From positions 384,001 to 448,000 of the forward strand of contig CAXWPJ010000010.1 in assembly GCA_963664115.2 (NCBI GenBank): a stretch of DNA of 64,000 bases, in the 5' to 3' direction. The DNA is from Terriglobia bacterium (lineage in GTDB: Bacteria; Acidobacteriota; Terriglobia; 20CM-2-55-15). Positions 19,138 through 43,591 of the stretch are shown one piece after another. Every line of letters begins with the position of its first letter. Position 1 is the first letter of the stretch. The notes beneath the pieces were generated by a model. That model saw only the letters and a program-made list of their open reading frames with translations, was not told the DNA's origin and searched no databases. The position numbers and the translations under genes were made by a program.

Positions 19138-19510
19138 CCTTCTGGAGGAAGGAAACCGAAACCGTCATCAACGCGCTGATCGAACACGCAGACAAACTCC
19201 CGACCGAACTCTATAAAACACTGACCTGGGATCGCGGATTGGAAATGGCCAATCACAAACGGTTCACTCTGGCCACCGACATTGCCGTTTACTTTTGCGA
19301 TCCGAGGAGTCCCTGGCAACGGGGTTCGAACGAAAACACGAACGGTTTGCTCCGACAGTATTTCCCTAAAGGTACGGACTTGTCGGTTCACTCACAGGAG
19401 CATTTGGATATGATCGCAAGGAAGCTCAACGGGCGACCTCGTGAGACGCTGGACTTCGCTAATCCGGCAGAGACATTAAACGCAGGTGTTGCATCGACCG
19501 GTTGATCTGA
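19138..19510 (+). pseudogene. IS30-family transposase, 3' remnant
   Basis: TLTWDRGLEMANH, VYFCDPRSPWQRGSNENTNGLLRQYFPKGTDLS, LNGRPRETL; no 5' part. Confidence 0.9.
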
Positions 19511-19565
19511 ATTCGTTTCTCAGGACTTGAGAATTTGATAGCGCCTAACTCACTCCTCTAGTATC
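19511..19565 (+). promoter_or_regulatory. Inverted array half-site followed by the conserved sigma70-like promoter
   Basis: TTTCTCAGGACTTGAGAAT (19516-19534) is the exact reverse complement of 22434-22452. It is followed by TAGCGC-17 bp-TATCGT. Confidence 0.7.
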
Positions 19566-19609
19566 GTTTACTCAACTTTTCACAGTTCGTTTCGACGCAC
19601 ACTAAAACG

Positions 19610-19757
19610 ATGGAATCAGGCACCAAACTTGGCCACTCCGAGATCTCAACTCTCTATAGGTAAGGGTGGAATGGGTGAAGTCTGGCGTGCACGGGATACG
19701 AAACTGGGCCGTGAAGTTGCTATAAAGACTTTGCCTGAAGAGTTTGCGAAGGATGAT
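19610..19757 (+). pseudogene. Ser/Thr protein kinase, N-terminal remnant
   Basis: [15 protein letters not shown] / [33 protein letters not shown], with one frameshift. Gly-rich loop and VAIK lysine are present, then the homology stops. Confidence 0.85.
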
Positions 19758-19798
19758 CCTGTCGCCCCACCGGCTTCTCGGACACCCAAATAACGAAC

Positions 19799-21724
19799 AT
19801 GAACTTCCAATATCATCCCTTTTCTCTCTCACTGCTCCGAAGCCTAGGCCCAATCGAAATCGTACATGTAGATCGGGTGTTAGAGGAGCAACTCGGCCTG
19901 ACGAGCGACGAGATTGCAGCTCAGCCTCTCATAGACTGGATTCATCCTGAAGACAGGGCCGTTATCAAGGAAGCCCTGGATTCCGGCGCTGGCTACGCGT
20001 GGGCCCGGCATCGGACGAAACATCACGATTGGGTACCTTTTGATTGGCAGGTAGAGACCGCGGATGGTGGGGTTTTTGTGCTCGGGCGACTGGCATCGGA
20101 AAGCCCGATGAGCCCCGCGTCTTTCGCCCCTAGCAAGTCGAATACGCAGGCTGAGGCGCTGGAGGCCATGGCGCTCGTCGTGGAGGCAAAGAACCCGGAA
20201 ATGCGATGCTCGATCCTGCTCGTCGATTCTGCGACCCGTCGCGTCACAGTCGGCGCCGGTCCGAGTCTTCCGGCCGAGTACAATGAGGCGGTTGAGGGAT
20301 TGCAAATCGGACCCGCCGTCGGTTCCTGCGGGACCGCAGCGTTTTGGAATGTGCCTGTCATTGTCGATAACATTGCAGAGGACCCGCTGTGGCGTAACCT
20401 GCGTGGGACGGCCTCCATCGCCGGTGTCTGCGCGTGCTGGTCGCACCCGATCACGGCGACGGACGGTACTGTCCTCGGTGCCCTGGCGCTGTATGCCGAT
20501 GAACCAAAATTTCCTGACGAGAGCCAGATGGATGGACTTGAGATCGCGGCTCGCATGGTTGGCATCGCGCTCGAACGTGACCGCCTGCAGGAGCAGCTGA
20601 GGCGATCCTCGAAGTTGGAAGCAATTGGCCGACTGGCCGGAGGGATCGCGCACGACTTTAACAACTATCTGACGGCAATCGTGGGCAATCTTGACTTGGC
20701 GATGCTGGGGCTTGCGCCCGACGACGAGCGAAGACCCCTGATCCTGGCGGCCCAGAATGCGTCGCTCAGGGCGCGTGACGTCACGCAACAATTGCTCACC
20801 TTTGCCTCGGGTGGTGCTCCCGTGACCTCGGCTCAATCACCCATCGAGCTGGCCAGGGAGACCGTCGATTTCTCGTTGGCGGGCTCCAACGTGCGCTATG
20901 AGATGCGTTTCGGGTCCGAAATCAAGAATGTCGAAGTCGATAGAGGACAGGCGAGCCAGGTGATCCAGAACGTGGTCCTCAACGCCGTTCAGGCGATGCC
21001 GGAGGGTGGCGACATTGTCGTTAGCGCGGAAAACGTCCCCGCCGAATCGTTGCCTCACTCGGAGTCATCCGGTTCGGGCGAGTTTGTCCGATTGTCGATC
21101 GCTGACCAAGGTCTGGGCATACCGGAGCACCATCTGACTCGCATCTTTGATCCGTTCTTCTCGACGAAAGACCAGGGACGGGGGCTGGGTCTGGCGACGA
21201 CCTATTCGATCATGAAGCGGCACGGGGGCCAACTGACCGTGGATTCCACGATGGGCAAGGGAACGACCGTCCAACTGTATTTCCCGGTGGCGCAGCGAGA
21301 AGCCCAGCCCCTAGACCCGGACGTTGAGCCTCTTCTCTGCCCCGTCGGCAGGGTGCTGGTGATGGACGACGAGGAGTCTGTTCGGGACCTGCTCAAGAGG
21401 ATGCTCGTGATGCATGGCGGCGAGGTCACGCTCGCTTCAGACGGGAGCGAGGCGATCCGAATGTTTGAGCAGGCCCGGGGAGAGGAGAAGCCCTTTGATC
21501 TGGTGATCCTCGACCTGACGATTCCCGGTGGCATGGGAGGCGTGGTCGCCCTGAGCCACCTCCGAAAACTCGATCCTGAGGTCCGCGCCGTCGCCACGAG
21601 CGGCTACGCGGATAGCCCGATTCTGTCGGAACACGCGGCGCACGGATTCGCCTGCAGCTTGAAGAAGCCCTACTTGCTGGAGGATCTGAAAACACTGCTA
21701 TCCTCCGTGTCGGGGGATGTTTAG
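19799..21724 (+). CDS. Hybrid sensor histidine kinase (PAS-GAF-HisKA-HATPase-REC)
   Basis: WIHPEDR, GSCGTAAF (GAF), GGIAHDFNN, FDPFFSTK, GRGLGLA, VLVMDDE, DLVILDLTIPGG. Confidence 0.95.
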   Translation: MNFQYHPFSLSLLRSLGPIEIVHVDRVLEEQLGLTSDEIAAQPLIDWIHPEDRAVIKEALDSGAGYAWARHRTKHHDWVPFDWQVETADGGVFVLGRLASESPMSPASFAPSKSNTQAEALEAMALVVEAKNPEMRCSILLVDSATRRVTVGAGPSLPAEYNEAVEGLQIGPAVGSCGTAAFWNVPVIVDNIAEDPLWRNLRGTASIAGVCACWSHPITATDGTVLGALALYADEPKFPDESQMDGLEIAARMVGIALERDRLQEQLRRSSKLEAIGRLAGGIAHDFNNYLTAIVGNLDLAMLGLAPDDERRPLILAAQNASLRARDVTQQLLTFASGGAPVTSAQSPIELARETVDFSLAGSNVRYEMRFGSEIKNVEVDRGQASQVIQNVVLNAVQAMPEGGDIVVSAENVPAESLPHSESSGSGEFVRLSIADQGLGIPEHHLTRIFDPFFSTKDQGRGLGLATTYSIMKRHGGQLTVDSTMGKGTTVQLYFPVAQREAQPLDPDVEPLLCPVGRVLVMDDEESVRDLLKRMLVMHGGEVTLASDGSEAIRMFEQARGEEKPFDLVILDLTIPGGMGGVVALSHLRKLDPEVRAVATSGYADSPILSEHAAHGFACSLKKPYLLEDLKTLLSSVSGDV

Positions 21725-22278
21725 GGCCCCTGGGCGCCACCCTCACCGGGGTTCTGTCAACTGATCTTCCGATGGCCGAACCGATGGCGCATGGTTACCA
21801 GTTGATCAACCTGTCGTGATCACTTCCCAAGTCCCAAAAGAAAGTGCCCGCAGCATCCGATGATGAGCCGATTTCAGCCGGTGCCGAGCAATTCGGAAAA
21901 GATTCAGAACGAGACCGTGAACAAAGAGGAATCGTTAAGTCTGAGCGGGGGACTTGAACCTTCTCATCTGCCGCTCCCGCTGCCGGGTTGGTTGGTGCGA
22001 GACTTCCGCTCGATTGTTCGCGTATTGATCGGTGTCATGGTTCACCGAAGGCATGATCGTGCACGACTTATCGGGATTTGAGATTGGACCAGTAAACACT
22101 GGCTCGTCAGGGGCGATCCATAGGTCTCTCGGAGTATTCCGGCGGGCGAGGCGAGCTCGGAGATTCGGCCGGTGGAGACTGGTCGGCGCGATCGTCAGGT
22201 CACGAGCGCCGCAAGGCGTGCGACGAAGATGAGGACGATCAGGAATGTGAAGAAGTAGAGAAGGAGAACGCCGAGGTC

Positions 22279-22398
22279 GACGGTCGCTTTCTCATGATCT
22301 CCGCAGCGAACCAACCTGAATTCGGTCTCAATCGTCCTCAAATCAACATCGTCCTCAACTGGTTTGAAGAACTGAAGGAACGGTTGCCGGTGCCGTAA
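22279..22398 (+). pseudogene. Ser/Thr kinase-PD40 protein, C-terminal remnant
   Basis: DGRFLMISAANQPEFGLNRPQINIVLNWFEELKERLPVP*, with no start. Confidence 0.8.
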
Positions 22399-22433
22399 AA
22401 CAGGCCGTTTGTTCCTGTCTATCGCTGAAATCC

Positions 22434-22475
22434 ATTCTCAAGTCCTGAGAAATCATCTTCTCGGACGTTGAGAAT
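22434..22475 (+). repeat. Array site, copy a
   Basis: ATTCTCA AGTCCTGAGAA ATCATC TTCTCGGACGT TGAGAAT. Confidence 0.9.
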
Positions 22476-22543: not shown

Positions 22544-23390
22544 TTGTGCCACGAGCATAGAAGGCCGAATGGCCTTCGAGTGCGCAACTGCTCAACTGAT
22601 GAGGGAGGGCCCCTCGGAATCGGCTTGCAGGAGTTGGTTTCAAACCACCTTTGGCGGCTGTGGTCAAAAGCCATGGTCGTGAGCGCGTAAGGAAAAGGCC
22701 CGGCAGTGATCGGGTCAGGTGTCAGGCAAGAAGAGGACCGCAAGGGAACCACTGCTGAAGTGTCGAAAGCTTAGAGACGATGGCCAAAACCGCGGAGTTA
22801 TAGTTGCTGCGGGATGAGATCCGACGATACCTGTTTACGGGCGGAGTGGCCTCCGGCATGAGAGGTGGCCTGAGCTTGCCAAGAGGCGGTTGAGCGGAAC
22901 GTGGGAACCTGAACTTCGATGCTAACGGAGAAGCCACAAGTGGAAGCACCACGAGGGCGAGAGTACGGATGCGGGGTTCAGGGGCGGACTGCCTTGTAGT
23001 AGTGATGAACCTCTTGTAATGAGAGGGGAGCGAAGGGGGCAGGCCATTCGCGTCATGGTCCATGAACTCAGGAGGAACCGACTGTTGTGGCGGGGAGCAA
23101 CAGTAAGCCGTGTGAGAGAGGGGACGTCCGCGTTGCGCCTTGAAAGGGAAGTCTAGTCAGCCTGCCGTGGCAAATTCGCGTCATGGTCACTGCCGTAGAC
23201 AGGGAGGGAGTTGATAGCCCCGAAATCGATCGTGGTTGAAGTAGCCGACCTTGTCAACTGGTAACAGGAGGAACCGACTGTTGTGGCGGGGAGCAACAGC
23301 TCTCAGTGAATGGCAAGAGCCGTGTGAGTTGAGAGGCTCACGCACGGTTCTGTGAGAGGCTCGGGGTGAAATTCCCCGGGCCTACTCGGC
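22544..23390 (+). mobile_element. ORF-less or internally deleted group II intron
   Basis: 5' TTGTG followed by a CCACG/CGTGG basal stem. Domain V GAGCCGTGTGAGTTGAGAGGCTCACGCACGGTTC (23317-23350); domain VI ends CCTACTCGGC. Boundaries are inferred. Confidence 0.75.
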
Positions 23391-23671
23391 CGTCAAGTAG
23401 AAGGTCGACTGATGTGCCAGAGGGCGGCTTGTGCGGCGTTGACGATCAATTCCCTAAACACTAGGCGACAAGGGTGGATCTATCTCACGAATCTCACTCA
23501 GCTCCCTTTATCAGAGATGGCGGAACCGGCGACCCGAATCGAGGAGGACCTGACTCCAGGGCTCTTTGACAGACGGAATAAACGACGGCGTCGGAGAATG
23601 GCCGTGCTGGCAATGCCAGCAGAGGGCTGACGTCAGGTGGCGGATCAGCGGAATAAGCAGGGTCTGGTGTT

Positions 23672-24154
23672 ATGGAACCGACAAAGACAAAGCTCGTTGA
23701 ATTCGGTCGCTTTGCTCAGCGGGATGCGGGCAAGCACGGGAGAAAACGTCCAGAAACGATCTACTTTCTGGGCATGACCCTGTACTGCTCGCAGAATCGC
23801 AAAGGCAATTTCCGGGTGGGATTGCGCACTGAGAAGTCTCGACTTCAACGCAGTCTGGCCCATCTACGCGATCTGATGAGACGAATGCGTCACTTGCCGG
23901 TCCGGGAGCAGGTTCAGAATCTGAATCGGGTCTTGCGTGGTCACTACGCCTACTACGGCATCGCCGGAAACTTCCGGGCCCTCCAGCACGTTGCTCGGGT
24001 CGTGGAGCGTTACTGGCGCAAGATGCTGAGCAGCCGGAGTCGCGCTGGTTACGTCCGGTGGGAGGTATTCAACCGGATTAAGACGCGCTTTCCGTTGCAG
24101 CGGCCCAAGCTGGCGCTTCCGTATCGGGAGTTCCAGTCTCTTGCTGTGTTGTGA
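23672..24154 (+). pseudogene. Group II intron reverse transcriptase/maturase, C-terminal fragment
   Basis: KTKLVEFGRFA, PETIYFLGMT, LNRVLRGHYAYYG (domain X); the YADD region is missing. Confidence 0.88.
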
Positions 24155-24167
24155 ATCCGTTTCTGAA

Positions 24168-24241
24168 GAGCGTAGTGCGGGAAATCCGCACGCTACGTTC
24201 TGTGGGAGCCGGAGGCGGGTGACCGCCTCTGGCGACCCGGT
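24168..24241 (+). ncRNA. Domains V-VI of a second group II intron
   Basis: GAGCGTAGTGCGGGAAATCCGCACGCTACGTTCTGTGGGAGCCGG...GGCGACCCGGT directly after the RT stop codon. Confidence 0.85.
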
Positions 24242-24957
24242 CCTCGGGGTGAAATTCCCCGGGCCTACTCGGCCGTCAAGTAGAAGGTCGACTGATGTGC
24301 CAGAGGGCGGCTTGTGCGGCGTTGACGATCAATTCCCTAAACACTAGGCGACAAGGGTGGATCTATCTCACGAATCTCACTCAGCTCCCTTTATCAGAGA
24401 TGGCGGAACCGGCGACCCGAATCGAGGAGGACCTGACTCCAGGGCTCTTTGACAGACGGAATAAACGACGGCGTCGGAGAATGGCCGTGCTGGCAATGCC
24501 AGCAGACGACTATGGCAGCGCTGTCAATGTCGTCGTATGAGTGTTATGTCAACCCGCGCGCGGCCACAGGCCGTCGCGCGACGGAGGCGTACTTTACAGA
24601 ACGTCGAGGAGCCCGACCAAGCGCAACGCAACACTGGCGGATGGATCCGGCGCTGGAGCGGACAACTCGTGAGAACTGCGGGTTAGGGACGAAACCTGCT
24701 GGTGCCGAAACCGTTAACCAAAGAATTAGAGGTGGGAGAGCACAATCAGAAGGCCGCCAGCCCGCTTGACCTGACCCTGGCATCAACTCGTCGCGACGAC
24801 GTTAGCTTGCCCGTGCCCCGCAGTTCCACGCCCGGCATCGCTTCATTGAGTGGTAACGCGGGTGGTAACACCCATCAAGCGCTGGCGCCCGGATGAAACA
24901 GGATCGAAGCGGGGCACAAGCGCAGCGCTGAACACAGTTCGTTGCAGAGATTGAACG

Positions 24958-26626: not shown

Positions 26627-26666
26627 ATTCTCAAGTCCTGTAAATCATCTTCTCGGACATTGAGAA
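26627..26666 (+). repeat. Array site, copy b (1 nt shorter)
   Basis: ATTCTCAAGTCCTGTAA ATCATC TTCTCGGACAT TGAGAA. Confidence 0.9.
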
Positions 26667-33459: not shown

Positions 33460-33588
33460 TTTTTGAGTTCAAGTCCTGATAAATCGCAGTATGAAAGGAC
33501 GCCCCTAGACTGGGGGTTGTTGAGAGAAGACTCACTCAACAACCTGATCAACGTATACAGCGTTGATCCCAGAAAAGGAGCGTTCGAG

Positions 33589-34653
33589 ATGAAACAAGAC
33601 AAGTATATGGGTATGGATGTGCACCAGGCAACGACGGTGGTTGCGGTGAGAGACGGGAGCGGCAAACTGGTGTTTGAAACGATCGTGGAAACCGAGGCGG
33701 GGAGTATCACACGGCTGCTGGAGGGATTGAGTGGGCCGATGCACGTGGGGTTGGAGGAGACCACGCAAGCGGGCTGGTTATCGGAAGTGATCCGGCCGTG
33801 GGTGAGCGAGGTGGTGGTGTGCGATCCGCGACAGAACAAGTGGATGCAAGAAGGGTCGAAGGGGGATAAGCCGGATGCGCGGAAGCTGGCCGAGCTGTTG
33901 CGGGTGGGACTGTTGCGCTCGGTGTATCACGGCCATGAAGCGACGCGAGAATTGAAGCAACTGGTGCAGGCCTATGACACGTTCCAGTTGGACACGCAAC
34001 GGGTGATGTCGCGGATCAAAGCGATATACCGGGGACGGGGGATCCCGACACCGAAGGACGGAGTCTATCGGCCGAGTCAGCGCGAACAGTGGTTGGAGAA
34101 GCTGACCGAGCCGGGGATGAGGCAGCGCGCCCGATGGTTGTATGCGGAACTGGACCAGGTCCAGTTGCTGCGGAAACAATCCAGAAAAGCGGTGCGAGTG
34201 GAGGGCCGGCACCATGAGGCGGTGAAACTGCTCGAGACCATTCCACAACTGGGACCGGTTCGGGCGGCACAGATCGTCGCCATCGTGGACACGCCGTACC
34301 GATTCCGCACGACACCGCAGTTCTGGAGCTACAGTGGCCTGGGTGTGGTGACCCACATGAGCGCGGAGTATGAGATGCAGAGTGGACGTGTGGTGCGACG
34401 GAGGAAACCGGTGGCCACACGCGGATTGAATGCGAACTGCAACCGGCGATTGAAGTCGGTGTTCTTCTCAGCCGCGGCATCGGGAAAACAAAGCGAGCCG
34501 TATCGGATTTATCTGGAGAGTCTCCAGATGCGTGGGATGCGGGAGGAAATGGCGCGGGTCACTCTGGCCCGTAAGATCGCCGCACTGGTGCTGACGCTTT
34601 GGAAGAAAGGAGAATCGTTCGATCCAAAGAAACTGAGCTGGATGACAACATAA
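33589..34653 (+). CDS. IS110-family DEDD recombinase/transposase
   Basis: MGMDVH, LEET, KGDKPDARKLA, TIPQLGPVRA, FWSYSGL, LARKIA. Confidence 0.93.
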   Translation: MKQDKYMGMDVHQATTVVAVRDGSGKLVFETIVETEAGSITRLLEGLSGPMHVGLEETTQAGWLSEVIRPWVSEVVVCDPRQNKWMQEGSKGDKPDARKLAELLRVGLLRSVYHGHEATRELKQLVQAYDTFQLDTQRVMSRIKAIYRGRGIPTPKDGVYRPSQREQWLEKLTEPGMRQRARWLYAELDQVQLLRKQSRKAVRVEGRHHEAVKLLETIPQLGPVRAAQIVAIVDTPYRFRTTPQFWSYSGLGVVTHMSAEYEMQSGRVVRRRKPVATRGLNANCNRRLKSVFFSAAASGKQSEPYRIYLESLQMRGMREEMARVTLARKIAALVLTLWKKGESFDPKKLSWMTT

Positions 34654-34714
34654 GCCGTTTCGATCCGTGACCGGTAGAGCCGTACTGAGTCGTTAGACGG
34701 AGTCGGAACAACTG

Positions 34715-34845
34715 AGGATCGAGGGTGAGGATCTGCACAAGATGTGGTCCCTGGATACGTCCAGAGGACACTTTTAAATCTCTATCCCCCCTCGCACGAC
34801 CTGAAACAGCGATAGCCTTCGAGGCTCAGATAGATCCATGGTCGG
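34715..34845 (+). ncRNA. Putative bridge/seek RNA of IS110 #1
   Basis: Two stem-enclosed internal loops: ACAAGATG / TAAATC match the target, and GCGAT / ATAGATC match the element's end junction. Confidence 0.7.
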
Positions 34846-35368
34846 CACATGCCGTCCCATATGCTGTTCAGTTTCTGAATCGACCGTCTTAAAGATGTAC
34901 GATTTCGCTCCGGATTGCCGGAACCAGGGCTTCACATAACGGTAGAGGGGCTGGCTGTCACGACAAAAGTGTCCGTCTGGCCGGCCATCGGGGAGCTGTT
35001 TCTCTTGACATCCCCTTTCATAGATCATCTTGTCGGAAGTTGAGAATTGGATTGTGTGGTTTTCGTCGATCCCGAGAGTAGGAAATAGAGACAGTTCTTT
35101 TGTTTTCCTATTGAATAAGACTGGATTCCAGGACTGTGACGGCTCTGAGCCGTTGGTCCAATCCGCCGACCGTCGTCCGGCAGAGCATCAGCGCCGCATA
35201 CCCCAGACACATGCCCCCGCCAATGGTCCATTCCCGGCGAGTTCTGGACAGGTTCAAAACGCTTTCGTTCACGACGTGGAGCCGAAACGTTTGTCAGTCA
35301 AACTTGTCAGAAACTTTCTCGGTGATTGCATTCTGCTTGGACTCGATATTCGAGTGCGCTATTTTTCG

Positions 35369-37579: not shown

Positions 37580-38119
37580 TCTACTCTGGAGTGTCCCGGC
37601 CGCGTGGGTGCCACACGTATTTTCGCCGCGATCCGGTTTCCGAAGGTGCGGGTGGCGATTCGTTAGTTTCTTGTCGAAATCCGTTAGATTTCCTTTCTTG
37701 CGATCATGTTCTGAAAATCCGCTCAGGGGCGCGAGCGGCAGAACTGACGTCAATAGTTCGGCTCGATTGGCGTCGCTTTTCTGCTGCGGAGGCCTTGTTC
37801 TGGGCCGTCGTGGACATCATCAACTTAAGCTGTTCGATGGCGTTTTCGGCTCCCTCTGTCGCCTCCGGCGACAGTTTTGCCGGCATCTGGCCATCCATTG
37901 CACTGCAAACCCTGCTGCCGAGTAGAGGAAGCCACTATCGGTCCGTAGGTATCCCCTTGGCCGTATCCGCCGTTTCCGGCATCGTGCCCGTGCCCTGATC
38001 TTCAAGGTCAAGTCCTGTATCTGGACTCCTCTGTCAAGTAGGCGCAGCTCTCCCGTCAGCTTTCTTCGGCAAAATGCATTCAGCAGGACTGACTAGAAGT
38101 TACGAGGTGAGTAGCTAGT

Positions 38120-39966
38120 CCCTGAACAAGCGTGATTGACGAGGAAATGATAGTGCAATAAGAGCGGAAGTACCCGAAATGCCCCCTCTCCGTGCGAAAA
38201 AAACCTTGAACAGATTCTTCGGAAAAGGAGGCATTTCAGATGAACGATTATACGCGCAAGAACATGAGGAACCGCAAGCGGCGAATCGAACGTCGGCTTG
38301 GGGACCGGCATTGGACGGATCAGGTAGAGCCGATGTTTTCGGCGAGCAACATTCAGTACGAGATGGGAGAGCGGACGCGGGGCACATCGGTTGGTGGTAT
38401 CGGGACGATGCAACTGGTGGCGCGGCGGACCGGGCTGATCGAAGCCATCGACAAGGGCGTGCATGTGTTGAAGCGGCACCTGCCGTATCACGAGTCGGAT
38501 CACGTGCTGAACATCGCCTACAACGCCTTGAGCGGAGGAACGTGCCTGGAAGACATCGAACTGCGGCGCAACGATGCGGTGTATCTGGATGCGCTGGGAG
38601 CGCAACGGATTCCGGATCCGACGACGGCGGGAGACTTCTGCCGGAGATTCGAGGCCGACGACGTGGAGTGTCTGATGGAGGCAACCAATCAAGTCCGGCT
38701 CGGAGTCTGGCGACAGCAACCGGCGGCGTTTTTCGAAGAAGCGGTGTTGGACGCGGACGGGACACTGGCCGAAACCACGGGGGAATGCAAGCAAGGGATG
38801 GACGTGGCCTACGACGGGACGTGGGGATATCACCCGCTGATGATCTCGCTGGCCAACACCGCCGAACCGCTGTATCTGGTCAATCGTAGCGGCAACCGGC
38901 CGTCGCATGAAGGAGCCGCGGTCCGGTTCGACCAAGCCATCGCATTGTGCCGGCATGCGGGGTTTCGCCAGATCCTGCTGCGCGGGGACACGGACTTCAG
39001 CCAGACCCGGCATCTGGACGGATGGGACGACCAGCAGGTGGGTTTCATATTCGGGATTGACGCGATGGCGAACCTGAAGGCCCGGGCCGATGAACTGGAG
39101 CCGCGCCAGTGGAAGCGCCTGGAACGGCCCGCGAAATACGACGTGGCGACCGAACCGCGCCAACGTCCCGACAACGTGAAGGAAGAGATCGTTCGGCAGC
39201 GCGGTTTCGACAATATCCGCTTGCAGGGTGAGGATGTGGCCGAGTTTCGGTATCGACCCGGAGCCTGCGATCGGGACTACCGTGTCGTCGTGGTGCGGAA
39301 GAATCTGTCGGTGGCCAAAGGAGAGCAGGTGTTGTTTGACGACATCCGGTACTTCTTCTACATTACCAACCGTTCGGATCCGGCCGACCAGATTGTGATG
39401 CGTGCCAATCAACGGTGCAATCAGGAGAATCTCATTGAGCAGTTGAAGAACGGCGTTCAGGCGTTGCGGATGCCGGTCGGAGATCAGACCAGCAACTGGG
39501 CCTACATGGTGATCGCGTCACTGGCCTGGACACTGAAAGCGTGGTTTGCATTGCTGCTTCCCGAAACCGGACGTTGGGGCCAAAAATATCAGGCTGAGAA
39601 GCAAACCGTGCTGCGCATGGAGTTCAAAACCTTCTTGAACGCTTTCATGCTTGTGCCGTGCCAACTCGTGCGCACCGGGCGGCGCATTCTGTTCCGGATC
39701 CTGGCCTGGAACCGGTGGTTGCCGGTCTTGTTCCGCGGGGTGGATGTGTTGCGTCAGCCTCTGCGATGTTGACCCGATCATGACTCTGAGCCCGGGCGAT
39801 CGAGGTCCCGGTTTCTGTCAACCGTCCAACACCAGCGAGGCTGAACTGAAACAGATTCAACAGAAACTCGATACCTGGAACAGGCCATCCGGGAACGGGA
39901 TTCTATGCCTCGAATTCTATCGGCGCGAACTGGGCCTCGGCGGACTGGTTATGCGCTTGTTTTGGG
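38120..39966 (+). mobile_element. IS1380-family element, copy 1
   Basis: IRs CCCTGAACAAGCG / CGCTTGTTTTGGG; 6-bp duplication GCTAGT; 1847 bp. Confidence 0.92.
38240..39772 (+). CDS. IS1380-family transposase
   Basis: LDADGT, GYHPL, LRGDTDF, NQRCNQENLIEQLK. Confidence 0.92.
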   Translation: MNDYTRKNMRNRKRRIERRLGDRHWTDQVEPMFSASNIQYEMGERTRGTSVGGIGTMQLVARRTGLIEAIDKGVHVLKRHLPYHESDHVLNIAYNALSGGTCLEDIELRRNDAVYLDALGAQRIPDPTTAGDFCRRFEADDVECLMEATNQVRLGVWRQQPAAFFEEAVLDADGTLAETTGECKQGMDVAYDGTWGYHPLMISLANTAEPLYLVNRSGNRPSHEGAAVRFDQAIALCRHAGFRQILLRGDTDFSQTRHLDGWDDQQVGFIFGIDAMANLKARADELEPRQWKRLERPAKYDVATEPRQRPDNVKEEIVRQRGFDNIRLQGEDVAEFRYRPGACDRDYRVVVVRKNLSVAKGEQVLFDDIRYFFYITNRSDPADQIVMRANQRCNQENLIEQLKNGVQALRMPVGDQTSNWAYMVIASLAWTLKAWFALLLPETGRWGQKYQAEKQTVLRMEFKTFLNAFMLVPCQLVRTGRRILFRILAWNRWLPVLFRGVDVLRQPLRC

Positions 39967-39974
39967 GCTAGTCG

Positions 39975-40110
39975 ACTGCACCCGTATCTTCGGCCTCAAA
40001 AGTGGAACTGTATTGTTCCAGGCCATGATGGAAATTTGCGCGCGGGGAGCCAACCGATAAAATAACGGCCTCTAAGGGCCAAAGGACTTGTCGGCGTTGC
40101 CCCGCGCCGG
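39975..40110 (-). ncRNA. Putative bridge/seek RNA of IS110 #2
   Basis: On the minus strand: CAAGTCCT-hairpin-TTTAT (target) and CCATCA-hairpin-AGATA (donor junction). Confidence 0.68.
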
Positions 40111-40178
40111 TCTGACCGGTACGCCATCATCTCGAACCTCATCGCAGCTCGCTGAAAAGATATTCCGACTGTTCCGGG

Positions 40179-41213
40179 TCAGGCCGCCTGATACCGGGCC
40201 TGATGGTCACAGTCACGGTTCCAAACCGCCCACACGCGACGCGCCAACTTGTTGGCCAGTGCAACGATTGCCTTGTTGTGTCCGCGGAACTCGTGTTTCT
40301 GGAGACCCCATTGCTGGAGAGGTGTCGGTGTGGCGCCCTCTCGATGGGCACTCCACAACAGGGAACGGCCCCCATGAACCAACAGCATCCGGAGGTAACG
40401 ATCGCCTTGCTTACTGATCCGGCCCATGCGTCGCTGGTTGCCACTGGAATGTTCCCGGGGTGTGAGTCCCAGATAACTGGCAAAATGGCGGGACGTTCGG
40501 AATCGTTTGATGTTTCCAACAAACCCCACCATTGCCGTTGCCGTTAACAGGCCGATGCCGGGAATCGACGTCAGACGCGCGACCTCAGGCATCTGCCGAG
40601 CCAGCGTCTTCAACTCTTGTTCCACCGATCGCATGCGAGATTCCAATTCACGGATCTCGCCACACACCTGGTGAAACATCTCCCGAACGACACTGGGGAT
40701 GACGACATCTGCATCTTCGATCAGCTCCATTACCCCCGGCACCAGATGATCCGCTCCGGTCGGGATCACGTAGCCAAACTCCCGTAACAACCCCCGCACC
40801 GTATTGATCCGTGCGGTTCGGGTTCGCATCCACGCCGAACGGATTCGATGCAATGAGGTCAGTTGCTGTTGGGCCAGGGTTTTGACCGGCACTGGATGAA
40901 TATCGCTGTCACGATAGGCTTCCAACAATCCTTTCACATCCGTACGGTCGGTCTTGTTGCGCCTGACGTAGGGCGTCACATACTGCGGCGAGATCAGAAC
41001 GACCGTGTGTCCCAGTTCCCGGATCTTCCGACCCCAGTAATGGGCGGATCCGCAGGCTTCCATCACCACGGTCGCCAGCTCCTGGTTCGCAAAGAACCCC
41101 AGAAACTTTGCCCGACTTAAACGATAGGTTTTCTCTACATGCCCGGGGCGATCTGAAACACCAATTTGAAAAACATTCTTTGCCAGATCCACTGCTATCG
41201 TTCTATTCTTCAT
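40179..41213 (-). CDS. IS110-family DEDD recombinase/transposase
   Basis: IAVDLAK, MEACG, KTDRTD, SIPGIG, GLTPREHSSG, ISKQGD, ALANKLAR. Confidence 0.95.
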   Translation of the reverse strand: MKNRTIAVDLAKNVFQIGVSDRPGHVEKTYRLSRAKFLGFFANQELATVVMEACGSAHYWGRKIRELGHTVVLISPQYVTPYVRRNKTDRTDVKGLLEAYRDSDIHPVPVKTLAQQQLTSLHRIRSAWMRTRTARINTVRGLLREFGYVIPTGADHLVPGVMELIEDADVVIPSVVREMFHQVCGEIRELESRMRSVEQELKTLARQMPEVARLTSIPGIGLLTATAMVGFVGNIKRFRTSRHFASYLGLTPREHSSGNQRRMGRISKQGDRYLRMLLVHGGRSLLWSAHREGATPTPLQQWGLQKHEFRGHNKAIVALANKLARRVWAVWNRDCDHQARYQAA

Positions 41214-41373
41214 CTCGGACTCCTTTTTGTTCACACGTACACGTGTTTCGCCCGCTTTATTGCGAGGCTCAAAATGACTTTGGCACTTCGATGCCGACTC
41301 AGTCATCAAAGAGGAGTCCATACCATCAATAAATCATCTTCTCGGACGTTGAGAAACCCGCTGATTCAAATCA

Positions 41374-41568: not shown

Positions 41569-41719
41569 GGCTCTGTATCGGACTGAGAATTATGATAAGA
41601 AGTGTGACATGATGCGGTCTTCGAATCTGGATGTTCACGGTTCTGGGTGTTATCCAGGAATACGCCCGCATTCCTGTTGAGAGATACGACCCGCAACCTG
41701 AACAGCAATGAGCGCTAGT

Positions 41720-43566
41720 CCCAAAACAAGCGCATAACCAGTCCGCCGAGGCCCAGTTCGCGCCGATAGAATTCGAGGCATAGAATCCCGTTCCCGGATG
41801 GCCTGTTCCAGGTATCGAGTTTCTGTTGAATCTGTTTCAGTTCAGCCTCGCTGGTGTTGGACGGTTGACAGAAACCGGGACCTCGATCGCCCGGGCTCAG
41901 AGTCATGATCGGGTCAACATCGCAGAGGCTGACGCAACACATCCACCCCGCGGAACAAGACCGGCAACCACCGGTTCCAGGCCAGGATCCGGAACAGAAT
42001 GCGCCGCCCGGTGCGCACGAGTTGGCACGGCACAAGCATGAAAGCGTTCAAGAAGGTTTTGAACTCCATGCGCAGCACGGTTTGCTTCTCAGCCTGATAT
42101 TTTTGGCCCCAACGTCCGGTTTCGGGAAGCAGCAATGCAAACCACGCTTTCAGTGTCCAGGCCAGTGACGCGATCACCATGTAGGCCCAGTTGCTGGTCT
42201 GATCTCCGACCGGCATCCGCAACGCCTGAACGCCGTTCTTCAACTGCTCAATGAGATTCTCCTGATTGCACCGTTGATTGGCACGCATCACAATCTGGTC
42301 GGCCGGATCCGAACGGTTGGTAATGTAGAAGAAGTACCGGATGTCGTCAAACAACACCTGCTCTCCTTTGGCCACCGACAGATTCTTCCGCACCACGACG
42401 ACACGGTAGTCCCGATCGCAGGCTCCGGGTCGATACCGAAACTCGGCCACATCCTCACCCTGCAAGCGGATATTGTCGAAACCGCGCTGCCGAACGATCT
42501 CTTCCTTCACGTTGTCGGGACGTTGGCGCGGTTCGGTCGCCACGTCGTATTTCGCGGGCCGTTCCAGGCGCTTCCACTGGCGCGGCTCCAGTTCATCGGC
42601 CCGGGCCTTCAGGTTCGCCATCGCGTCAATCCCGAATATGAAACCCACCTGCTGGTCGTCCCATCCGTCCAGATGCCGGGTCTGGCTGAAGTCCGTGTCC
42701 CCGCGCAGCAGGATCTGGCGAAACCCCGCATGCCGGCACAATGCGATGGCTTGGTCGAACCGGACCGCGGCTCCTTCATGCGACGGCCGGTTGCCGCTAC
42801 GATTGACCAGATACAGCGGTTCGGCGGTGTTGGCCAGCGAGATCATCAGCGGGTGATATCCCCACGTCCCGTCGTAGGCCACGTCCATCCCTTGCTTGCA
42901 TTCCCCCGTGGTTTCGGCCAGTGTCCCGTCCGCGTCCAACACCGCTTCTTCGAAAAACGCCGCCGGTTGCTGTCGCCAGACTCCGAGCCGGACTTGATTG
43001 GTTGCCTCCATCAGACACTCCACGTCGTCGGCCTCGAATCTCCGGCAGAAGTCTCCCGCCGTCGTCGGATCCGGAATCCGTTGCGCTCCCAGCGCATCCA
43101 GATACACCGCATCGTTGCGCCGCAGTTCGATGTCTTCCAGGCACGTTCCTCCGCTCAAGGCGTTGTAGGCGATGTTCAGCACGTGATCCGACTCGTGATA
43201 CGGCAGGTGCCGCTTCAACACATGCACGCCCTTGTCGATGGCTTCGATCAGCCCGGTCCGCCGCGCCACCAGTTGCATCGTCCCGATACCACCAACCGAT
43301 GTGCCCCGCGTCCGCTCTCCCATCTCGTACTGAATGTTGCTCGCCGAAAACATCGGCTCTACCTGATCCGTCCAATGCCGGTCCCCAAGCCGACGTTCGA
43401 TTCGCCGCTTGCGGTTCCTCATGTTCTTGCGCGTATAATCGTTCATCTGAAATGCCTCCTTTTCCGAAGAATCTGTTCAAGGTTTTTTTCGCACGGAGAG
43501 GGGGCATTTCGGGTACTTCCGCTCTTATTGCACTATCATTTCCTCGTCAATCACGCTTGTTCAGGG
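41720..43566 (-). mobile_element. IS1380-family element, copy 2 (inverted)
   Basis: Same IRs and same 1847-bp length; has its own GCTAGT duplication. Confidence 0.92.
41914..43446 (-). CDS. IS1380-family transposase
   Basis: Protein identical to 38240-39772. Confidence 0.92.
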   Translation of the reverse strand: MNDYTRKNMRNRKRRIERRLGDRHWTDQVEPMFSASNIQYEMGERTRGTSVGGIGTMQLVARRTGLIEAIDKGVHVLKRHLPYHESDHVLNIAYNALSGGTCLEDIELRRNDAVYLDALGAQRIPDPTTAGDFCRRFEADDVECLMEATNQVRLGVWRQQPAAFFEEAVLDADGTLAETTGECKQGMDVAYDGTWGYHPLMISLANTAEPLYLVNRSGNRPSHEGAAVRFDQAIALCRHAGFRQILLRGDTDFSQTRHLDGWDDQQVGFIFGIDAMANLKARADELEPRQWKRLERPAKYDVATEPRQRPDNVKEEIVRQRGFDNIRLQGEDVAEFRYRPGACDRDYRVVVVRKNLSVAKGEQVLFDDIRYFFYITNRSDPADQIVMRANQRCNQENLIEQLKNGVQALRMPVGDQTSNWAYMVIASLAWTLKAWFALLLPETGRWGQKYQAEKQTVLRMEFKTFLNAFMLVPCQLVRTGRRILFRILAWNRWLPVLFRGVDVLRQPLRC

Positions 43567-43591
43567 GCTAGTTTGGAAAGGAGAGAATCCC

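Follow-up and report, generated by a model that had tools for sequence, protein, structure and literature searches.

The 64,000-nt stretch of DNA analysed here (the window; positions 384,001 to 448,000 of contig CAXWPJ010000010.1, part of G000, the 4.9-Mb, 12-contig genome of a Terriglobia bacterium) carries an insertion sequence (IS), IS110 #2, which belongs to the IS1111 group and occupies a fixed position within a palindromic repeat of about 40 bp, joined flush to it and with no core duplicated. Its insertion is likely RNA-guided, by way of a predicted two-loop RNA in the non-coding end downstream of the transposase gene; we put the probability of this reading as a whole at roughly 0.88. 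An initial annotation of the window had placed the element at 38006..41355. The element is indeed there, but its true ends are 38018 and 41328, and the longer range takes in the split repeat (Table 1).

With a nested IS1380-family element set aside, the number of differences between IS110 #2 and each of four intact copies elsewhere is 0, 1, 0 and 0, and the element thus has moved recently; three of the sequencing runs that contain it are sponge metagenomes. Its subterminal inverted repeats, 11 bp long and perfect, follow the end rule that Siddiquee et al. give for IS1111 elements (11-13 bp, with 7-nt and 3-nt extensions; PMC11187229). The transposase scores 316.6 bits against profile NF033542 (cut-off 140) and has the build of an IS1111 protein, with a RuvC DEDD domain, a Tnp domain bearing an SG motif and a length within 330-350 aa; judging by family motifs, D9, E52, D89, D92 and S257 are the probable catalytic residues. 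About 300 nt of non-coding DNA follow the gene, in which the top-strand match precedes the bottom-strand match, as published for IS1111, and the use of one target in one orientation with no target duplication is likewise that of the group. In a quick tree, IS110 #2 and nine relatives form a clade (support 100) within the IS1111 group (99), with the sister relation at the node of the attC-targeting group left open. The initial annotation had been reminded of IS1111 elements that target integron attC sites. The analogy is closer than it knew: the nearest named elements are the best plasmid matches of the transposase, ISKpn4 (46.5% identity), ISPa25 (47.1%), ISPa62 and ISPpu24 (48%), and these matches sit within integron cassette arrays. 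IS110 #2 is a new IS1111-group member that works like ISPa25 and ISKpn4, on a repeat that is not attC.

Homologous copies prefer the site, as the initial annotation had expected. Among 12 downstream ends, 10 lie at repeat position 10|11, one at the mirror position and one elsewhere, and all nine identical downstream ends are at the site; seven of eight upstream ends run on into the repeat, at that same position. Every insertion of IS110 #2 in the repeat points against the repeat's direction. Moreover, the AT variant of the repeat, which matches the guide, is found at 7/7 filled sites as against 38/167 empty ones (Fisher p=5e-5).

The sequence motifs named in the initial annotation are where it had put them, with CAAGTCCT at 40083-40090, TTTAT at 40057-40061, CCATCA at 40026-40031 and AGATA at 39985-39989, and in the predicted fold each pair flanks a hairpin. 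On the plus strand of the window, the corresponding target reads CAAGTCCTG|ATAAA and the donor ATACCATCA|TATCT. When the 300-nt end was shuffled 20000 times with dinucleotides preserved, the 8-mer arose in 44 shuffles and, with TTTAT 12-60 nt downstream, in 2, for a motif picked after looking. Target loop precedes donor loop in IS110 #2 just as in IS110 #1, the other IS110-family element of the window (guides within 34737-34836), which bears out the equal order noted before; this is the general IS1111 order according to PMC11187229, a source that also demonstrates the seekRNA of ISKpn4, a relative of IS110 #2, by experiment. Four sets of RNA-library contigs cover parts of IS110 #2 and one 199-nt contig spans the predicted RNA, although contigs of this kind are no proof of transcription and may be interrupted at branch points. 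An Rfam search of the window matched parts of group II introns only, and neither the IS RNA nor the repeat.

Relatives of IS110 #2 at 75-93% identity keep the same ends and have other targets. Those on the same inner arm (L098, L128 and L091) sit in CT or AA variants of the repeat, and their guides read TTTCT or TTTAA correspondingly. At the mirror position, 24|25, and in the opposite direction, a 75%-identical relative has 11 complete copies in the same-genus genome G002, with CGGACGTTGAG after all 11; mirror-type remnants occur in G000 on C1 and C10. Two further groups (L097 and L106) use unrelated target sites. Across 28 complete copies, guides covary with targets, all eight guide classes scoring best or tied on their own target.

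The initial annotation took the core to be AT or TA, which the junctions contradict. The two bases left of the junction in the 28 complete copies are CT (11), AT (8), CC (6), TC (2) or AA (1); they vary with the target while the element ends stay fixed, and hence AT/TA belongs to the target. The join is flush, with no duplicated core, and the positions equivalent to the IS621 core are TG for the target and CA for the donor, with 0/2 identical. IS621 has its top strand cut on the 3' side of core positions 8-9, after which the loop tails pair with positions 6-9 of the partner (PMC11208158). Transferred to IS110 #2, the donor-loop tail CGGG fits target CCTG with one G-T wobble, and the target-loop tail CGGT fits the donor at 3/4 positions. 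This register was examined in 69 IS1111-group elements, namely 57 of 80 GTDB loci (15 were dropped for want of an inverted repeat, 6 for want of an anchor or for short flanks, and 2 for lying near a contig end), 8 of the IS110 #2 clade and 4 named ones. The second guide matches the left flank at >=4/5 bases in 60/69, and in 0/69 are the last two flank bases also the element's last two. Between element and right flank the first base agrees in 52, the second in 32 and neither in 8, five of these from the IS110 #2 clade. At positions 3 and 4, the donor-loop tail agrees with the target in 41 and 31 elements (permuted means 21.8 and 20.4) and with the donor in 15 and 8; this alignment-based count supersedes an alignment-free search that located only 40 and 25 of the 69 tails. 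Complete copies show the top-strand product only, which would fit top-strand-led, copy-out models (10.1101/2025.10.25.684509; 10.64898/2026.08.31.748434). Among titles and abstracts (subscription papers and supplements being outside the scope), we found no report that maps handshake pairing onto the attC group or describes opposite-strand tiling of one repeat.

Several points weigh against this picture. One upstream end (C3, 1/8) and one downstream end (C7, 1/12) lie outside the repeat; the first target guide is mismatched at its last base (8/9); a remnant on C12 occupies the site with a non-matching guide; the right flank of L094, whose flanks are hybrid, matches only 5/9 guide bases; and the first guide of L097 fits only with a 1-nt shift (3/9 in register). 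The RNA and the circle of IS110 #2 are predictions, as is its RNA-guided transposition, and among the 15 joints listed (7 not shown) no circle joint was found. The -10 box at the predicted circle junction is poor, the hexamer at 17 nt being TGGTAT (3/6 consensus). As for the register, the test on the target-loop tail is weak (53 against 48 permuted, with position 4 invariant), the ends of the 69 elements were anchored by the 7/3 rule, and the permutation p-values are overstated because the elements are kin.

Table 1. Features of the window around IS110 #2 and its target repeat (window positions)
Feature	Position	Strand	Remarks
IS1111-group element (IS110 #2)	38018..41328	-	1458 bp without nested IS1380; ends from 7-nt left and 3-nt right extensions past the inverted repeats
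Left end of IS110 #2	41310..41328	-	11-bp subterminal inverted repeat 41310-41320; 7-nt extension TGATGGT 41322-41328
Right end of IS110 #2	38018..38037	-	TTGACA 38032-38037; inverted repeat 38022-38032; 3-nt extension ATA 38018-38020
Left part of split target repeat	38008..38017	+	
Right part of split target repeat	41329..41355	+	
DEDD transposase/recombinase, 344 aa	40179..41213	-	PF01548 and PF02371; D9, E52, D89, D92; SG motif S257
Predicted bridge/seek RNA core, two internal loops	39976..40110	-	From fold; aligns with the non-coding region of ISPa25/ISKpn4/ISPa62
Predicted target loop	40053..40090	-	Guides 40082-40090 and 40057-40061; 4-nt tail CGGT 40053-40056
Predicted donor loop	39981..40034	-	Guides 40026-40034 and 39985-39989; 4-nt tail CGGG 39981-39984; matches own ends
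Nested IS1380-family element	38119..39967	+	CTAG duplicated at 38115-38118 and 39968-39971; open reading frame 38240-39772; NF033539 above cut-off
IS110 #1	33486..35026	+	In another repeat copy, position 17|18, shared TC core; guides 34737-34744, 34774-34780, 34806-34813, 34830-34836
Empty repeat copy	22438..22474	+	Others start at 26631, 31441, 47390 and 47959
B-type repeat half cut by IS30-like end	19513..19530	-	

The initial annotation had put the non-coding end of IS110 #2 on the minus strand, and its motifs are in place there; to be corrected is that the IS1380 element is nested within this end, downstream of both RNA loops. G000 holds dozens of IS1380 copies. A second right end of IS110 #2 has an IS1380 at the same CTAG, with another beyond (G000:C5 206479-210289), and two copies of IS110 #1 (C9, C12) have one at a CTAG within their left end. 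An identical, inverted IS1380 pair at 38115-39971 and 41715-43571 brackets the IS110 #2 transposase gene as a possible composite or invertible unit. In G000, repeat copies 1-3 nt short, with TA or TATC after CCTG, resemble footprints of imprecise IS110 #2 excision (G000:C1 108672, C6 137768 and window 26631), and one right end in the repeat, which lacks a transposase and has target guides matching another sequence, was possibly moved in trans (G000:C12 18660-18960).

IS110 #1 (open reading frame 33589-34653) lies in another copy of the repeat, in the repeat's direction and with a TC overlap (8 left and 7 right ends). It was rightly described as having a very different transposase, which is 23.2% identical to that of IS110 #2 over 293 aa and falls outside the IS1111 group of the tree, on a long branch. 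Also confirmed are the opposite orientation of the two, IS110 #2 being on the minus strand, and the insertion of IS110 #2 a few nucleotides to the left, the points 10|11 and 17|18 being 7 nt apart. Among the plasmid matches listed for IS110 #1, none exceeds 29% identity. Its relatives (64-70% identity; 22 fetched copies in three same-genus genomes) have two other targets, with matching guides on the same scaffold. Hence two lineages converged on the repeat by guide change, and the earlier proposal that two bridge systems did so holds, given transposases far apart in the tree and #1 relatives at other targets. Two systems on one repeat are both present but are an undercount, as a mirror-position relative, IS30 and group II introns also split it. 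At one locus (L121; G002:C2 3550921-3554200), an IS110 #1-like end (98% identical) and a mirror-type element share a single repeat copy.

The repeat consists of two 17-bp arms around a 6-bp spacer. G000 has 167 empty copies (<=9 mismatches in 37), by spacer 148 of A-type and 19 of B-type; a looser arm pattern finds 168, and its reversed control 0. Other genomes of the genus have 8 (G001), 81 (G002) and 37 (G003), and four sister-genus genomes 1-3 each; in G004 none was found at 2 mismatches. In all, eight of 61 genomes, G000 included, bear the repeat, in two genera of one family. The pattern occurs in 7 stretches of metagenome contigs and in 0 viral contigs. Ends of IS30-family elements abut half a repeat in 16/20 cases (L189; window 19488-19507), and three short group II introns lie at position 24|25 (G000:C12 564490, 20172 and 17035; L187, L188), the very point of the mirror IS1111 relative. 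Group II intron pieces also occur at window 22555-24270, about 80 nt past a repeat copy and outside it; their 3' end is present twice, as a 269-bp repeat.

Near-identical flanks of up to 800 bp change partner exactly at the repeat, a possible marker of where shuffled gene modules begin and end. Like attC, it forms same-strand arrays that bound mobile modules. The attC pattern has an invariant GTT in R' and AAC in R''. In the repeat, G precedes TT in 76/148 and C follows AA in 7/148. Cassette starts are complementary to their own end box in 30/93 cases against 27.7 permuted, a weak test in which one motif dominates. The repeat is thus no canonical attC. The integrase IntI was found in G000, G001, G002 and G026, but neither in G004 nor in G003 (95% complete, with 37 sites). 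That of G000, a full integron integrase (TIGR02249 above cut-off; L161:5591-6547, G000:C9 714590-715873), is 195 kb from the nearest repeat site and is followed by small same-strand genes and a 73-bp attC-like site, unrelated to the repeat. No fixed crossover point was found in the repeat. A 306-aa tyrosine recombinase has 3 of 6 copies within 300 nt of a repeat site, and another, of 316 aa (L160:8190-9140; G000:C5 52189-53154), stands between two inward-facing B-type sites, each with a kinase 5' fragment outward; B-type sites other than those near these recombinases have no such gene. In the window, 19513-22474 form a unit that opens with a B-type site and closes with an A-type site, and in which a foreign histidine-kinase-like gene stands between a kinase 5' fragment and a kinase 3' fragment. 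Kinase fragments far outnumber whole genes, both ends being present in 4/64 open reading frames. A literature search on the repeat listed general integron papers only.

Other explanations were weighed against these data. That the core of IS110 #2 is a shared TA (or AT), in a target that is 1 nt short of the repeat consensus, is highly improbable: both junctions in the window allow a reading of TA, and the shorter form exists as one empty site (window 26631), but that form occurs once against 167 normal sites, relatives keep their ends in CT and CC variants with no TA there, and in public contigs of empty sites exactly 1458 nt are absent, with 0 shared or ambiguous letters (three runs, whose contigs may be other repeat copies). 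On the single shorter site, the fixed ends across target variants and these flush joints, the AT/TA core was rejected. We give hardly more credence to the idea that there was no convergence and that the two elements share their target through a common or swapped RNA module. Their equal loop order and the location of both RNAs downstream of the transposase would suit it; against it stand 23% protein identity, the lack of any DNA match between the elements, the reading of opposite strands, different cut sites, the use of other targets on the same scaffold by #1 relatives, and a loop order that PMC11187229 describes as general in IS1111.

Two alternatives concern the repeat itself. A gate beyond base pairing, be it the repeat hairpin or a host protein on the repeat, might explain why unrelated elements pile up there, and would supplement the RNA guide, not replace it. 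Either strand folds into a hairpin with two bulges (-7.4 to -12.3 kcal/mol), the IS30-like ends and group II introns agree with such a gate, and a target stem-loop gate is reported for ISPpu10 (10.64898/2026.03.19.712850). Yet the 14-mer target hardly occurs outside the repeat (20 exact matches inside empty repeats and 8 elsewhere, split repeats included), so that the genome cannot separate guide from gate, close relatives of IS110 #2 insert at unrelated targets, and the hairpin-paired positions 12 and 23 do not covary; we consider an added gate possible but on the unlikely side. As to the flank swaps, we lean slightly towards the repeat being a passenger of a decaying kinase gene family, akin to repetitive extragenic palindromic (REP) sequences, with homologous recombination, gene conversion and IS elements, and no dedicated recombinase, at work. 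It is a short extragenic imperfect palindrome with many copies and inverted doublets, as are REP sequences and bacterial interspersed mosaic elements (BIMEs), and the inverted A/B doublets resemble the latter. Of the A-type sites, 69/148 follow the 3' end of a Ser/Thr-kinase gene; the crossover position inferred from variable bases is not constant; two degenerate IS110 #2 copies have hybrid flanks; and no recombinase is consistently adjacent to the repeat (26/27 tyrosine-recombinase matches checked for distance). Against a passenger speak the same strand of 95/102 sites that neighbour each other within 10 kb, two modules (1252 bp, 1249 of them identical, and 352 bp, 339 of them identical) that are repeat-bounded on both sides among different neighbours, and the bimodal, conserved spacer (129 ATCATC and 17 ACGACM of 168). 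Nor was a REP-associated tyrosine transposase flanked by the repeat found: the two Y1 transposase genes have one degenerate site nearby, about 300 nt off and on one side. Doubtful, in our judgement, is the bolder possibility that the repeat is the recombination site of an integron-like, non-attC cassette system with attC-type parasites (IS30, group II introns and three RNA-guided IS110 specificities that cover the centre and either arm), in which some of the shuffling may be the work of IS110 recombinases that join two targets, and IS110 #2 would be a natural bridge recombinase without an identical core base.

For RNA-guided, flush insertion of IS110 #2 we propose the following course, whose circle, junction promoter and loop pairing are modelled on studied relatives. 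Copy-out would yield a circle of the element, with a promoter formed at the junction for both transposase and RNA. The joined ends would be bound by pairing with the donor loop, and CAAGTCCTG|ATAAA by pairing with the target loop; under IS621 geometry, the observed junction would be the first, top-strand cut, the core positions being TG on the target side and CA on the donor side, and a handshake would follow in which the loop tails pair with the incoming partner strand. IS110 #1 reached the same repeat independently, through a changed guide and reading the other strand, and a sister lineage of IS110 #2 was retargeted to the mirror position. The many copies of a non-coding repeat could offer a safe and abundant landing site.

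The element and the convergence are of known kinds; the new details are the mirror-arm relative (75% identical), the IS30 and group II introns in the repeat, and the identical modules bounded by the repeat among different neighbours. The close relatives form a natural series, whose changed targets differ by 1 base, lie on the mirror arm or are unrelated sites; this series fixes the guide register and is of modest value for work on bridge recombinases. That a recently active element shares 0/2 core bases with its target fits top-strand-led insertion and suggests that the IS621 core limit may not bind this group. Should the repeat prove to be a cassette recombination site, a new gene-shuffling platform would have been found via its parasites.

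Among known systems, the closest are ISPa25, ISKpn4, ISPa62 and ISPpu24, which target attC, whereas IS110 #2 targets the non-attC repeat and forms a separate 10-row clade beside them. PMC11187229 adds ISPst6 to this group. ISPa25 has the TGATGG start, the ATA finish and the RNA scaffold in common with IS110 #2, and both it and ISPa62 have the 7/3 end layout, an alignable RNA and flush insertion before CG. Their donor TG differs from target CG at one core position, while inner-arm members of the IS110 #2 clade, with TG against CA, are mismatched at both. Insertion points published for attC-group elements, AA*CG and AG*CG (PMC13604230, Table 1), agree with the flush junction; given these and the ISPa25/ISPa62 layout, neither flush insertion nor a core mismatch at one base is new. 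IS621 and ISCro4 match IS110 #2 in the Tnp domain (E 2e-11) and the two-loop RNA, and their cut and handshake register maps onto it, but IS110 #2 has its RNA downstream, with the guides in reverse order with respect to the gene; its subterminal repeats are long, and it has no shared CT core. IS1111 bridge RNAs are drawn with cores by Durrant et al. (PMC11208160), and PMC13626964 has nothing further on IS1111. Two IS110-family elements on one repeat have a precedent in ISPpu9 and ISPpu10, all copies of which lie in one dispersed palindromic repeat, the REP of Pseudomonas putida (PMC1525189, PMC12288879); ISKpn4 and ISPa25, 46% identical and both in attC, are another such pair. ISPpu9 and ISPpu10 insert at the same point and are 57.8% similar, whereas IS110 #1 and #2 are 23% identical and on opposite strands, and here there are three cut points (10|11, 17|18 and 24|25), symmetric about the palindrome centre. 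Finally, integron arrays and clusters of attC sites lacking integron integrases (CALINs) share with the repeat the same-strand sites after gene ends, the modules in changed contexts and the IS1111-type and group II intron parasites; compared with attC, the repeat is too short and without the invariant GTT/AAC, and many of its modules appear to carry their own upstream leader.

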